Assembly (NCBI RefSeq): GCF_001457615.1
Contig: NZ_LN831024.1
Location: 4,500,001-4,532,000, forward strand
Direction of reading: 5' to 3'
Length of the DNA stretch: 32,000 nucleotides
Origin: Pseudomonas aeruginosa
GTDB lineage: Bacteria > Pseudomonadota > Gammaproteobacteria > Pseudomonadales > Pseudomonadaceae
The position numbers and the translations under genes are program-made. Under the pieces are notes generated by a model. The model was not told where the DNA came from and did not search any database. It saw only the letters and a program-made list of their open reading frames with translations. Below, one piece after another: positions 24,288 through 27,642 of the stretch (within the stretch, counting starts at the first letter, position 1; every line of letters begins with the position of its first letter).

Positions 24288-24773
24288 TTAGCGTGCCGGG
24301 CAGGGTGTCGCCCTGCCCGCATGGAAAAGACGGACGACAGTCTTCAGCAGCCTACCGCCTACCCGCCGCGCACGCCTCTGGCTGGCGGTTATGGTCAGGC
24401 TCAATCCTCTTTCTGCGGTTCGCCGGGCAACAACGCGCGTGATGAACAGACCGCGATACAGGTGGAATCCCGTTTGCACGTCCACCGTTTCGGAAGCGCC
24501 TTGCAGTGAAGTCAAGGCAGCGATGCCCTTGCGCACACGGTACTCGTTCAACGCGCGGCTGCCTCCCTCCATCGGCAGCAAGGAGGGCAACGGCTCGTCA
24601 GCGGGCGCATGGTCGACAATGCTGCCGACGATGGTGATGAGCTTGTCGCCGCGCGCGCTGACGGCAGCCTCTTGCCCCGTCTCGACGACACTCCCGGCAG
24701 CCTGCGCGAGGTTTTCGGAAATCACCGCATCCAGGCGAACGATGCCGACGCGACGACTGATCAACATGACCAT
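24288..24773 (-). CDS. alpE: Lysis-cassette protein of unknown function (161 aa)
   Basis: ATG with a GAGGAGAG SD. Last gene of the co-oriented alpBCDE set. No TM segment, signal peptide or enzymatic motif recognised. Confidence 0.75.
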   Translation of the reverse strand: MVMLISRRVGIVRLDAVISENLAQAAGSVVETGQEAAVSARGDKLITIVGSIVDHAPADEPLPSLLPMEGGSRALNEYRVRKGIAALTSLQGASETVDVQTGFHLYRGLFITRVVARRTAERGLSLTITASQRRARRVGGRLLKTVVRLFHAGRATPCPAR

Positions 24774-24825
24774 GGATCTCTCCTCTATGTATGGATGGCA
24801 TCGCTACGATGCATCGCAACGACCT

Positions 24826-25329
24826 CTAGTAAGCCGTTCCACCCGTCCCCCCGGAGGCCTGCCCGGAAGCGGTGCGCTCGAGGTCGACGAGCAGTACGTG
24901 TTCGTGAGCGAGAACAAGGTCGAAACGAGCCTGTCCCAGCGCCTGGCCATCCTGCACGACGGACAGGTTTTCGATGGGCGTCAGGCGCAGCAGGCTGGCC
25001 TTCAGCACGCGCAGGCGCTCGCCGGCATTGCCTGACTGCAGCAGGCAGCAGGCATCCTGCAGGTACTGGTGCGCCCCGGGACCATGCCAGGTCAGGCGAA
25101 AGATGCTCTCGCAACTGGCCAGCAGGGACTCCTGCTCGCCACTGGCGGAAAACTCCCGCCGCACCTTGCCAAGCAGGCTCGAGGACTCCAGGCGCAAGGT
25201 CATGAAGGGGATGGCCGGCGGGGCCAGCAGTTGATCGGCATCGATGACGCTGCCGGCGGGCAGGCCGAACAACTGCCGCAACGTTTCGCGCAGGGCGGCG
25301 TGATCCAGGCGCACGGTTGCACTGGACAT
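24826..25329 (-). CDS. alpD: Lysis-cassette protein of unknown function (167 aa)
   Basis: The ATG at 25329 is preceded by AAAAAGGAG. The protein looks soluble and may resemble a phage morphogenesis (neck/tail-completion) protein, but that impression is weak. Confidence 0.75.
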
Positions 25330-25420
25330 GGCGAACTCCTTTTTCAGGATGGATGGATGACGGACAGGCACCGACGCGGCGGATACAACCGCCGGCCAGG
25401 CCGGAGCGAAGTACGTTCGT

Positions 25421-25696
25421 TCAATGCAGGCGCAGGACCCGCGCCAGGTTGCCGCGCGCCTGCAACAGCAGGACCAGCAGCACCAGCAGTACCCCGAGCA
25501 TCCACGGCGAGAGGTGCTCGGCACGATACAACCCGGCCACTATTCCCAGCGCCTGGCAGCCGGTGCACAACGCCAGCAGGTAGGCGCACAGGGAAACGCC
25601 GGGGCGGAAACGCGCGCCGGCGCGGCGATAGGTGATCAGGCGCATGCAGATCGCCGAGCAGACCAGCACGGTCAGGGTGGACAGCGGATCAACCAT
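25421..25696 (-). CDS. alpC: Small 3-TM holin-family-like membrane protein (91 aa)
   Basis: The ATG at 25696 overlaps the alpB stop (ATGGTTGA), with a GGGGAGG SD. It has three hydrophobic segments and a basic C-terminal tail. Confidence 0.75.
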
Positions 25697-26063
25697 CGGA
25701 CTTGCCTCCCCGGCGGCGCAACAGCCCGCGCATCCAGCTGGGCAGTTCGCCGCCACGCATCCACTCGAGCATGCCGATGCCGCCGGTCACGCAGAGGGTC
25801 GCGGCGACGAAGGCGGCCATGCCGCTGGTCTGGGTCAATCCGCGGCCGAGCGCCTCGATTCCGGCGTAATAGCCGCCGACCCAGGACACCAGCAGGTAGC
25901 CGAGGCGGGTCAGGGCGTTGTAGTCACGGGCGAACACGACAAAGAAGATGGCGCCGCCGAAGCCTCCCAGCAAGGCGTTGCCATCGATACCCGGCAGGTA
26001 CATGGCCAGGCCGACGCCAGCCATTGCGCTGGCGGCGGAGGCCGCAGAGCTTGGCTCGGACAT
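25689..26063 (-). CDS. alpB: Holin-like membrane protein (124 aa)
   Basis: The ATG at 26063 has a GGGAG SD. It has Gly/Ala-rich TM segments and a highly basic C-terminus ([13 protein letters not shown]), as holins typically do. Confidence 0.8.
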   Translation of the reverse strand: MSEPSSAASAASAMAGVGLAMYLPGIDGNALLGGFGGAIFFVVFARDYNALTRLGYLLVSWVGGYYAGIEALGRGLTQTSGMAAFVAATLCVTGGIGMLEWMRGGELPSWMRGLLRRRGGKSDG

Positions 26064-26077
26064 GGATGACTCCCGGA

Positions 26078-26106
26078 AATGCAAAGGCCCGCCGAAAAGG
26101 CGGGCC
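26078..26106 (-). terminator. Intrinsic terminator in the alpB leader
   Basis: The minus-strand RNA reads GGCCCGCC-UUUUC-GGCGGGCC followed by UUUGCAUUU. It lies between the predicted alpB promoter and the alpB SD. Confidence 0.7.
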
Positions 26107-26113
26107 CGGAACG

Positions 26114-26141
26114 GCCGAAGCCCGCATCGGCGGGCTTCGGC
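26114..26141 (-). terminator. 12-bp GC-rich leader hairpin upstream of the terminator (pause or terminator-like, no U tract)
   Basis: GCCGAAGCCCGC-CGAU-GCGGGCUUCGGC on the minus strand. Confidence 0.45.
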
Positions 26142-26165
26142 CAGAGGAATTTCAATCGTGGAGAA

Positions 26166-26194
26166 TTTATACCTTTATCGTCCCATAGCGTCAA
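26166..26194 (-). promoter_or_regulatory. Predicted sigma70 promoter of alpBCDE
   Basis: On the minus strand: TTGACG (26189-26194), 17-nt spacer, TATAAA (26166-26171). Confidence 0.65.
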
Positions 26195-26227
26195 TATGGG
26201 AAAACCCGTTTTCATACAGAAATTTTT

Positions 26228-26758
26228 TTAGCGCTCGCCCACGATCCCCACCTCCGCCATCGGCTCCTCCAGCCGCTGCAAGGCCTGGCGCAGCAAAGCG
26301 ACGACCCGCTCGCGCCATTCCTTGTCCCAGCGATGCAGGGTGCTCTTCGACAGCCCGCTGAGTCGCTCGATCTCGCGGATGCTCGACGGCGGACGACGGA
26401 ACATGCGCATCAGCAAGGCCAGGGTTGCCCGCTGCTCGATCAGGTCGGCCCCGGGCTTCAGCCAGTCGCGCAAAGCCGCCAGGCCAAGGACGAAATCCCG
26501 CCCGCGGGCGAACTCGGCCCGCACCACCGCCAGCTCCAGTGGGTGCGCAGCCAGCTGGCGCTGGGCGAAACGCACGGTCATCACCGCCTGGGCCTGCCAT
26601 TCGTGCGGACTCAAACCGCTGGGCAGGTGTTCGATGAAGCTGCGATCGAAGCGCTCGCGCAGGCCATCGATCACCATCGCCGTCGACGACTTCGGTCCCG
26701 GCTGGTGCTCGAACATCCAGTAGGCCACGGCCAGCGCCTGCTCGGTACTTTGAAACAT
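26228..26758 (-). CDS. alpA: Positive regulator of the lysis genes; recalled as a Q-like processive antiterminator (176 aa)
   Basis: Strong AAGGAGGG SD. C-terminal HTH (SIREIERLSGLSKSTLHRWDKEW). Divergent from the repressor gene and directly upstream of the promoter-plus-terminator leader. Confidence 0.85.
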   Translation of the reverse strand: MFQSTEQALAVAYWMFEHQPGPKSSTAMVIDGLRERFDRSFIEHLPSGLSPHEWQAQAVMTVRFAQRQLAAHPLELAVVRAEFARGRDFVLGLAALRDWLKPGADLIEQRATLALLMRMFRRPPSSIREIERLSGLSKSTLHRWDKEWRERVVALLRQALQRLEEPMAEVGIVGER

Positions 26759-26866
26759 GGTATTCCCTCCTTGGCCGGCCCACCTGGCTGGCCGCTCGCA
26801 TTAGCCACCCGCAGTGGCTGTGTTGGGCCGCCGTCCTACCCGACGCGAGTAGGAAAGCGCTGAAAT

Positions 26867-26882
26867 TATGGTAATACCCATA
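26867..26882. promoter_or_regulatory. Candidate repressor (AlpR) operator
   Basis: TATGGTAATACCCATA is an imperfect palindrome (TATGG-N6-CCATA, 12/16 self-complementary). It overlaps the best -10 candidate for alpA (TACCAT on the minus strand). Confidence 0.4.
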
Positions 26883-26928
26883 TACGGACGCTTGCAATGC
26901 CACAGGCACACCCTTAGTCTTTCCACCT

Positions 26929-27642
26929 ATGGAACTCAAAGATCGCATCAAGGCGGCGCGCAAGCACGCCCATCTCAGCCAGGTCCAGCTTGCCCAGGCG
27001 GTAGGCATGACCCAGACCTCCATTTCCGATCTGGAGCGCGGCAAGTCCCGCGCCACCAGCTTCGTCGCGCAGATCGCCGGCGCCTGCGGCGTCAACCCCC
27101 TGTGGCTGGCGGAAGGTCGTGGCGAGATGCTCGCCGAGCGCGGCCAGGCGAATGCAGGCCCCAATGCCAGTTGGCTTGGCGCAGTAGAGTCATGGGACGA
27201 CGAAACGCCCCTGGATGCCGACGAGATCGAACTGCCCTTCTACAAGGAGATCGAGCTGTCCGGCGGCAAGGGCAGCACGGTGATCCTGCAGACCGGCGGG
27301 CGCAAGCTGCGCTTCGGCAAGTACACCCTGCGCAAGAAGAACATCGATCCGGCCAGTGCAGCCTGCGTCACGGTCAGCGGCAACAGCATGGAGCCGGTGC
27401 TGCCGGACGGCAGCACGGTAGGCGTGGACACTAGCGCGCGGACGATCAAGGACGGCGACATGTACGCCTTCGACCACGACGGCCAACTGCGCGTGAAACT
27501 GCTTTACCGCCTTCCAGGCGGCGGCCTGCGCATTCGCAGCTTCAACAGTGACGAGCATCCGGACGAGCGCTACGAGCCCCAGGAAGCCGCCGAGCACATC
27601 AACGTAATCGGCCGGGTGTTCTGGTACTCGGTGCTGGTCTGA
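26929..27642 (+). CDS. alpR: LexA/CI-like repressor: XRE HTH plus S24 autopeptidase (237 aa)
   Basis: The N-terminal HTH is LSQVQLAQAVGMTQTSISDLERGK. The C-terminal S24 domain has a catalytic-Ser motif VSGNSMEP (Ser153) and Lys190 (LRVKLL). An Ala-Gly is present in the linker. Confidence 0.9.
   Translation: MELKDRIKAARKHAHLSQVQLAQAVGMTQTSISDLERGKSRATSFVAQIAGACGVNPLWLAEGRGEMLAERGQANAGPNASWLGAVESWDDETPLDADEIELPFYKEIELSGGKGSTVILQTGGRKLRFGKYTLRKKNIDPASAACVTVSGNSMEPVLPDGSTVGVDTSARTIKDGDMYAFDHDGQLRVKLLYRLPGGGLRIRSFNSDEHPDERYEPQEAAEHINVIGRVFWYSVLV

Follow-up and report, generated by a model that had tools for sequence, protein, structure and literature searches.

The alpBCDE self-lysis operon of Pseudomonas aeruginosa is very probably the 5′ stump of a contractile tailocin late operon

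Background

The Alp system of Pseudomonas aeruginosa (PA0906-PA0911) is a DNA-damage self-lysis module that was described in 2015 (McFarland et al.); its control by antitermination followed in 2021-22 (Pena et al. 2021; Wen et al. 2022), and a role for its protein AlpD in 2026. According to the introduction of PMC7969949, DNA damage triggers autocleavage of the repressor AlpR, which derepresses alpA and leads to the expression of alpBCDE, and the PAO1 literature places Alp lysis in a subpopulation of cells (PMC7969949, PMC12796719). Here, we analyze the alp locus in a window of 32,000 nucleotides, i.e., the whole stretch of P. aeruginosa DNA that was studied (RefSeq assembly GCF_001457615.1, contig NZ_LN831024.1, positions 4,500,001 to 4,532,000), and compare it with loci of related strains and species in which alpBCDE very probably still has its original continuation, a set of contractile-tail genes.

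A preliminary description of the window, made from the sequence alone, had presented the locus as a damage-responsive switch wired to two holin-like proteins and “two soluble unknowns”. The Alp locus itself is already known, and as written that observation adds nothing new. In the literature searched, the sole remark found on a tail cluster at the alp locus comes from a 2019 paper that mentions a “variable, phage-related region” in exlA+ strains, and no paper was found in which the region is taken for a tailocin or for the state from which alpBCDE descends.

Results

Gene content and identity of the locus

The interval from 24288 to 27642 is bounded exactly by the stop codons of alpE and alpR, and the six alp genes are the only genes between the tRNA genes and the PA0912-like gene (Table 1). 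The flanks match PA0903-PA0913, with alaS, lysC, csrA/rsmA, tRNA-Ser, two tRNA-Arg, the alp genes, a DUF4124 gene and mgtE. Judged by its sequence, the locus is the published Alp system (alpR-alpA-alpBCDE), as the preliminary description had also concluded: AlpA and AlpD match the Protein Data Bank (PDB) entries 7XYA and 25VD, the promoter elements lie at their published positions, and genes, order, orientation, neighbours, the AlpA-binding element (ABE), the sigma-pause element and the intrinsic terminator tB are all the same, so that nothing essential differs. The window AlpA is 92.6% identical to the protein studied by cryo-electron microscopy (cryo-EM; chain 7xya_G “AlpA” of 7XYA/7XYB, 175 aa, E = 6.9e-102), and on that account we considered whether the window might not represent classic P. 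aeruginosa. This was rejected because locus L001 encodes, as the P. paraeruginosa-type allele, exactly the cryo-EM protein (WP_034080184; 100% identity), the window AlpD is that of PAO1, and three classic P. aeruginosa loci (L010-L012) are 98-100% identical to the window across the locus. The mechanically listed open reading frames (ORFs) of alpB, alpC and alpD were overlong and their starts were reset by ribosome-binding site (RBS), after which the lengths agreed with those of the genes called in relatives.

No endolysin or spanin was detected among the six genes in Pfam and PHROG scans. The locus in the window also holds no integrase, replication, capsid, portal or terminase genes, and the sheath, tube, tape-measure, baseplate and fibre gene set of an R-type tailocin is absent from the window, in which only a remnant is left. 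The two identical tRNA-Arg(ACG) genes and the tRNA-Ser(GCT) gene adjoining alpR form a typical integration hotspot for phages and islands.

Table 1. Features of the alp locus and its surroundings in the 32-kb window, including the blastn segments shared with the intact tail-cluster locus L001
Feature	Position	Strand	Description
alpR	26929-27642	+	237 aa; CI/LexA-like repressor, N-terminal XRE-type helix-turn-helix (HTH), C-terminal S24 autopeptidase
alpR-alpA control region	26759-26928		divergent; intergenic alignment of six loci
conserved block in control region	26867-26885		TTATGGTAATACCCATATA
alpA	26228-26758	-	176 aa; divergent from alpR; Q-like processive antiterminator (by published mechanism)
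PalpB -35	26194-26189	-	TTGACG; 17-nt spacer
ABE	26184-26170	-	GGGACGATAAAGGTA; published motif GGGACGN5GGTA, between -35 and -10 (PMC7969949)
PalpB -10	26171-26166	-	TATAAA
pause element	26160-26155	-	CACGAT, -10-like; at -1 to +5, as published (PMC9371919)
leader hairpin 1	26142-26113	-	13-bp GC-rich stem, 4-nt loop, no U tract; between pause site and tB
tB (hairpin 2)	26107-26077	-	intrinsic terminator; stem-loop 26107-26085 plus U-rich tail; starts at +54
alpB	25689-26063	-	124 aa; holin; Pfam Phage_holin_8 4.2e-45; phrog_198 holin 2e-29
alpC	25421-25696	-	91 aa; holin-family, putative antiholin; Pfam Phage_holin_3_7 5.6e-30
alpB stop/alpC start overlap	25696-25689	-	ATGGTTGA
alpD	24826-25329	-	167 aa; phage tail/neck terminator homologue
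alpE	24288-24773	-	161 aa; shortened relative of a 247-252 aa tube-initiator/Dit-like baseplate gene
hairpin at alpE 3′ end	24296-24322	-	GGGCAGGG-CGACA-CCCTGCCC; GC-rich
span with deletion scars	24205-24868		relative to the intact tailocin cluster
blastn segment	30356-24869		L001 1-5490; 92%; alaS to near end of alpD
blastn segment	24793-24707		L001 9982-10067; 78%; start of Dit_like gene
blastn segment	24638-24576		L001 10148-10210; 78%; inside Dit_like gene
blastn segment	24204-20382		L001 16928-20750; 94%; from DUF4124 gene on
PA0912-like gene	23718-24242	+	next to alpE; signal peptide, DUF4124, weak BamE domain
tRNA-Arg(ACG) (two) and tRNA-Ser(GCT)	27740-27816, 27928-28004, 28122-28212	-	adjoin alpR
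tRNA-Met(CAT)	11636-11712	+	solitary, mid-window, distant from alp locus

Intact tail clusters in relatives and the segments missing from the window

Six loci (L001-L006, including AR441, CP029093) were retrieved by looking up where two long relatives of AlpE, the “phage baseplate/Dit-like” proteins P0020 and P0021, are encoded. All six have the same flanks, with alaS, lysC, csrA, the tRNAs, alpR, alpA, alpB, alpC and the terminator gene on one side and DUF4124 and mgtE on the far side, and the region from the terminator to DUF4124 is filled by a full contractile-tail gene set. This set comprises a sheath protein of 499 aa (E217_gp31_N), the tube (Phage_Tube_PhiTE), two chaperone ORFs and a tape measure of 624 aa, followed by Dit_like, Pam3_gp18, E217_GP41, a spike, a sheath initiator, two wedge proteins, a fibre and a methyltransferase; no head, terminase, integrase, replication, endolysin or spanin genes were found in the six loci. 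The gene that ends the cluster after the fibre encodes a Methyltransf_21 protein, an unusual tailocin cargo (L001 15910-16860, L006 15892-16836). Downstream of mgtE, L006 and only this strain carries a group II intron reverse transcriptase (RVT_1, GIIM; 19613-20744).

The same cluster occupies the same site in ATCC 9027, the species representative of P. paraeruginosa (L008), and in CP127228 (L014), of which AlpA is 75% identical to that of the window. Metapseudomonas otitidis DSM 17224 (L007), with an AlpA of 78% identity, has its cluster at a different site without tRNAs, a locus that was read only as far as the baseplate wedge gene. Intact clusters are therefore present in at least three species-level lineages, in two of them at the same alaS-lysC-csrA site, and a single ABE heads the operon of each intact-cluster locus.

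Aligned by blastn with L001 (L006 gave a similar picture), the window retains four segments of the intact locus (Table 1). About 4.5 kb, from sheath to tape measure, are absent between window positions 24869 and 24793, part of the tube-initiator gene is absent as well, and about 6.7 kb with the remaining baseplate genes, the fibre gene and the methyltransferase gene are absent between 24576 and 24204. The last ~13 codons of alpD lie beyond the point at which the similarity to L001 ends (24869).

AlpD and AlpE

The “two soluble unknowns” of the preliminary description both turned out to be related to tail proteins, and its statement that the locus has no phage structural genes does not hold either. 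AlpD passes the thresholds of Pfam PF23961 Phage_tail_terminator_9 (51.7 bits where 27 are required; residues 12-153 align with positions 2-143 of the 153-position profile) and of NCBIfam NF047498 (LIC_12616_fam; 55.4 against 28), and is identical over all 167 residues (100%) to chain F of PDB entry 25VD, a protein cloned from PAO1 alpD (PMC13455828). According to two independent studies of 2026, an AlpD hexamer is the terminator that caps the F-pyocin tube; without it, the length of the tube is uncontrolled and killing is retained (bioRxiv 10.64898/2026.02.24.707460; PMC13455828). Tblastn against phages returned only matches of 25% identity for AlpD, in Aaphi23-like phages.

By sequence and modelled fold, AlpE is a shortened relative of a myophage tube-initiator/baseplate protein, which is new here. 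It scores just below the cutoff of Pfam PF21821 Dit_like (22.5 vs 24.2 bits), matches a PHROG tail family (1.5e-6) and is clearly related to P0020 and P0021 (247-249 aa; phmmer E about 1e-22), with 55% identity to the long form over residues 1-77 and 42% over residues 62-130 (BLASTP). P0020 (249 aa, Dit_like) in turn matches the Pam3 tube initiator gp17 (2.6e-17). Relative to the long form, AlpE lacks about 50-65 central residues, its last ~30 aa are unrelated and the conserved NPVESG motif has degenerated; in Pam3 gp17, the central insertion lost from AlpE is naturally absent. A derivation of the C-terminal 30 residues from another tail gene in a different frame was tried and rejected, as no such blastx match appeared.

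The AlphaFold model of AlpE has a mean pLDDT (predicted local distance difference test) of 64.8, with core strands and a helix at 70-84 and disordered residues 24-41 and 136-161. The top Foldseek matches are baseplate/tube-initiator chains from Bas63 (9NDY), PhiTE (9CUY), E217 (8EON), Pam3 (7YFZ) and R2 pyocin (6U5B), with modest scores (best E = 4e-4, template modelling score 0.35-0.45) and with Hcp-type tube folds also among the matches. Proteins of the AlpE type were confined to P. aeruginosa in the database search (96-99% identical to PA0911-type proteins). The homologues P0003-P0018 are polymorphic in length (161, 150, 149, 147, 166, 140 and ~129 aa), and an 11-aa deletion at the NPVESG-equivalent region occurs on several hundred contigs (250+). 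The GC-rich hairpin that overlaps the 3′ end of alpE (Table 1) has no counterpart in the intact clusters and may be a terminator or an element resembling repetitive extragenic palindromes at the deletion scar.

Divergence and constraint

AlpR, AlpB and AlpC of the classic loci share 96-98% identity with those of the P. paraeruginosa-type loci, whereas AlpD is only 74% and AlpE about 50% identical between the classic and the intact-cluster forms. Among classic strains, substitutions were counted between the window and L010-L012: alpR, alpB and alpC together have 0-3 non-synonymous and 12-19 synonymous substitutions, alpD 3-5 and 2, and alpE 6 and 1, respectively. The difference between alpE and alpR+alpB+alpC (Fisher p = 2e-4 to 2e-3) rests on small counts and is only indicative; since a single AlpE allele (P0002) served to retrieve all of L010-L012, the three alpE comparisons do not count as independent, and AlpD, which is known to be functional, likewise looks relaxed in these counts.

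Repressor, antiterminator and the alpB promoter

The CI/LexA-like repressor of the preliminary description was borne out, with matches of AlpR to Pfam HTH_3 (4e-11) and Peptidase_S24 (7.9e-23) and to the transcriptional repressor family phrog_4 (1.6e-53), and with the Ser/Lys dyad located at Ser153 within GNSMEP and Lys190 within LRVKLLY; in the linker, cleavage could occur at Ala76-Gly77. The block TTATGGTAATACCCATATA in the control region is conserved in all loci aligned, i.e., six intergenic regions including that of M. otitidis. It contains imperfect inverted repeats (an imperfect palindrome) and is a candidate AlpR operator or alpA promoter.

For alpA, the divergent position and, as weak hits, the HTH noted earlier were found again, but a conventional activator is not what the published work describes (PMC7969949, PMC9371919). 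AlpA binds the ABE and contacts the beta-flap and sigma region 1.1 rather than activating initiation, and RNA polymerase (RNAP) loaded with AlpA passes tB and even heterologous terminators (PMC7969949). In the cryo-EM structures, AlpA loads on sigma-paused RNAP with its C-terminal HTH on the ABE, and its N-terminal segment makes up a ring within the RNA exit channel that keeps hairpins from forming (PMC9371919). Both ppGpp and YgfB are modulators of AlpA. By sequence, AlpA matches no Pfam, NCBIfam or PHROG family above threshold, its C-terminal HTH matches in Pfam being weak only, and it is not a member of the Q families. A tblastn search of 50,697 phage records gave no match to AlpA. The family is very small, as at E <= 1e-3 a search of 1.84 billion cluster representatives yields only 33 members; a 42-residue match in a metagenome-assembled genome (L009) and a relative of 43% identity on a 1.8-kb contig (L013) both lack usable context.

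The sigma70 promoter predicted downstream of alpA is present as TTGACG-17 nt-TATAAA (26194-26166). A sigma-70 scan of 24000-28000 was blank, as its rule demands a T at position 6 of the -10 element, where the experimentally defined promoter has an A. The ABE motif occurs once in the window against 0.07 occurrences expected, and as a single copy at the same place in 13 related loci. The CACGAT element mediates a sigma-dependent pause that is required for AlpA loading (PMC9371919), and its placement puts the transcription start site at the A at 26159; hairpin 2 therefore lies at +54, the published start of tB (PMC7969949). This hairpin is tB, the terminator target of AlpA, and the sole terminator-like site in a terminator scan. 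The two strong hairpins reported for the leader are both real features of the sequence (26142-26113 and 26107-26085), and a folding energy of -54.4 kcal/mol was obtained for the 96-nt leader (z = -4.6 vs shuffles). Hairpin 1 shows one compensatory G-C to A-U change in the P. paraeruginosa loci, a shorter equivalent in M. otitidis and two mismatches in L006, and no discussion of it was found in what was read of the AlpA papers. A search of Rfam found tRNAs only and no known RNA family in the leader.

The four co-oriented genes behind the leader, two of them holin-like with an overlapping stop and start (ATGGTTGA), were described correctly and are alpBCDE. AlpC has three hydrophobic segments, as expected for three transmembrane helices, and a “Holin and anti-holin” are named in PMC7969949. 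AlpB and Hol were reported as redundant holins for Lys, the single endolysin of the pyocin cluster, in explosive lysis (PMC8131026).

Other features of the window

The product of the PA0912-like gene matches the phage family phrog_9068 over its full length (8.9e-24). Since it is 92% (L001) and 74% (L006) identical to its counterparts and the neighbouring MgtE is 100% identical, the gene may be part of a variable phage-derived element rather than of the core genome. A solitary tRNA-Met gene lies elsewhere in the window (Table 1).

Discussion

Because AlpE is homologous to P0020, which sits at the same site inside a full tail cluster, because blastn maps the missing segments and because a single ABE heads every intact cluster, we consider it very probable that the operon of the Alp self-lysis module is what remains of the 5′ end of a contractile tailocin late operon under the control of AlpR and AlpA. 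The fuller proposal, likely though held less firmly, is that alpBCDE would be the decayed front end of a third, AlpR/AlpA-regulated contractile tailocin of the E217/PhiTE/Pam3 type, of which AlpD and the holins would have been kept, the latter for lysis, and alpE would have come under relaxed constraint. As the sequence comparison suggests, two blocks would have gone from classic P. aeruginosa, one reaching from the sheath to the tape-measure gene and the other from the remaining baseplate genes to the fibre; the switch, the holins, the terminator, now serving a different tail, and the truncated tube-initiator gene alpE would have stayed. The orphaned, myophage-type AlpD would have been retained for capping the non-cognate, lambda-like F-pyocin tube, and the original job of AlpA would have been Q-like read-through of a tail operon of ~12.5 kb. 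In the present-day module, according to the literature, the CI-like S24 protein AlpR autocleaves on DNA damage and thereby derepresses alpA; AlpA binds the ABE within the alpB promoter and loads on RNAP paused at CACGAT, with its ring in the RNA exit channel, and the loaded RNAP passes tB into alpBCDE. AlpB, like Hol, can give the pyocin-cluster endolysin Lys access to the wall, and an AlpD hexamer caps the F-pyocin tube and sets its length.

Several points weigh against this reconstruction or limit it. As AlpD (74% identity) and AlpE (about 50%) are far more diverged than AlpR, AlpB and AlpC, the remnant possibly derives from a different tail-module allele and not by simple deletion from an L001-type cluster; perhaps AlpD and AlpE also evolved fast after the loss of their partners, with AlpD perhaps adapting to the F-pyocin tube. 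The functional steps are beyond the reach of sequence and rest on papers on PAO1, the window AlpA, encoded at a locus that carries the PAO1 AlpD, and the protein of the structural studies have different residues at 13 of 175 positions, and the dependence on Lys reported in PMC8131026 concerns the release of extracellular DNA in biofilms and not Alp lysis after DNA damage. Proteomics and transcriptomics of CLJ strains are the sole expression evidence for the intact clusters (PMC7643977). Lastly, alpE may be more than a dead leftover, as the alpE transcript is induced by ultraviolet light (PMC12796719) and the protein was detected together with AlpD in outer-membrane vesicle preparations (PMC6347270).

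These expression data also speak for the view that AlpE is a retained functional protein with a tube fold, exapted like AlpD, for instance as a component or assembly factor of R- or F-pyocins or in the lysis programme. All classic strains compared retain its ORF, its RBS and its co-transcription, the model gives the core beta-strands and helix fair scores, and the core may be complete given that Pam3 gp17 also does without the central insertion. We nevertheless regard retention as rather doubtful in view of the ratio of six non-synonymous to one synonymous substitutions, subject to the small counts and the shared allele P0002 of the comparison strains, of the many length variants (129-166 aa) and the 11-aa deletion in the motif region, and of the two F-pyocin structure papers, neither of which mentions AlpE as a component (bioRxiv 10.64898/2026.02.24.707460; PMC13455828). 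Less likely still is descent from a defective prophage with former head and replication genes. A prophage origin was suggested in PMC7969949, and the locus adjoins tRNA-Arg and tRNA-Ser genes as phages typically do and has a CI-like repressor, a Q-like antiterminator and holins; but in the five lineages examined even the intact versions have nothing but regulators, holins and tail genes, the stretch from the tRNAs to PA0912 being free of capsid, portal, terminase, integrase and replication genes, and AlpA has no relative in the phage records searched. The reading of the preliminary description, a domesticated lysis switch rather than a prophage, is only partly right, as the operon appears to be the front end of a mostly deleted tailocin cluster.

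That the short alpRABCDE form is ancestral, and that a contractile-tail module was inserted later between alpD and alpE with a subsequent extension of alpE, would agree with the stronger divergence of AlpD and AlpE, as expected of a foreign module, and with the different chromosomal site of the M. otitidis cluster. It is very improbable all the same, because neither a terminator nor a tube initiator would have a role in the absence of a tube, so that a locus born with just these two is implausible, and because the form of 249-252 aa is the one common to distant relatives and solved phage baseplates; the loss of the NPVESG motif, the internal gap and the unrelated C-terminus of AlpE are typical of decay rather than of an ancestral state, and the intact clusters recur across species-level lineages, twice at the same site. 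Least credible of all is a stand-alone domesticated lysis cassette consisting of a switch, holins and two unknowns, with no structural phage content and with AlpA as a conventional HTH activator. The lack of capsid, terminase, integrase, endolysin and spanin genes between csrA/tRNAs and mgtE in the window would suit it, as would the weak C-terminal HTH of AlpA and the 2015 description of AlpA as a positive regulator, in the summary that PMC7969949 gives of it. Yet AlpD is a tail terminator by two profile thresholds and by identity with the F-pyocin cap, AlpE is homologous to tube-initiator/baseplate proteins, and AlpA acts after initiation as an antiterminator.

The Alp locus resembles several known systems. 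In the R/F-pyocin cluster (PrtR, PrtN, Hol, Lys and tail genes), a CI-like repressor cleaved upon damage likewise gives way to a positive regulator that switches on a holin and tail genes, and the two loci are linked in that Alp supplies the F-pyocin terminator AlpD and the redundant holin AlpB. They differ in that the Alp regulator is an antiterminator and not PrtN, that the Alp locus has no endolysin or spanin, and that only two tail-derived genes are left in the window; the intact Alp relatives have a tail of the E217/PhiTE/Pam3 type, as opposed to the P2-like R-pyocin and the lambda-like F-pyocin. The Pfam families of these relatives (E217_gp31_N, Phage_Tube_PhiTE, Pam3_gp18, E217_GP41 and Sheath_initiator) are those of Pam3 (7YFZ), E217 (8EON) and PhiTE (9CUY), whereas the window keeps only the terminator and the truncated tube-initiator gene, and no relative has head genes. 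With lambda Q, 21Q and 82Q, AlpA shares the promoter-internal element, the sigma-dependent promoter-proximal pause, the loading onto RNAP and the exit-channel nozzle, and in lambdoid phages, too, a terminator ahead of lysis and structural genes is read through (PMC9371919). Unlike 21Q, one AlpA protomer loads and not two, and AlpA has no detectable sequence similarity to the Q families, as is also stated in PMC7969949.

As Alp itself is known, the comparative result is a modest new angle of modest importance. It accounts for the presence of a tail terminator and an odd small ORF inside a “cell-death” operon, and it offers an evolutionary rationale for the coupling of Alp and F-pyocins. It also predicts an AlpA-controlled contractile tailocin in strains of P. 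paraeruginosa (the exlA+ clade), which could affect competition between strains and could be engineered like R-pyocins, and antiterminators of the AlpA type would thereby gain a natural long-operon substrate.

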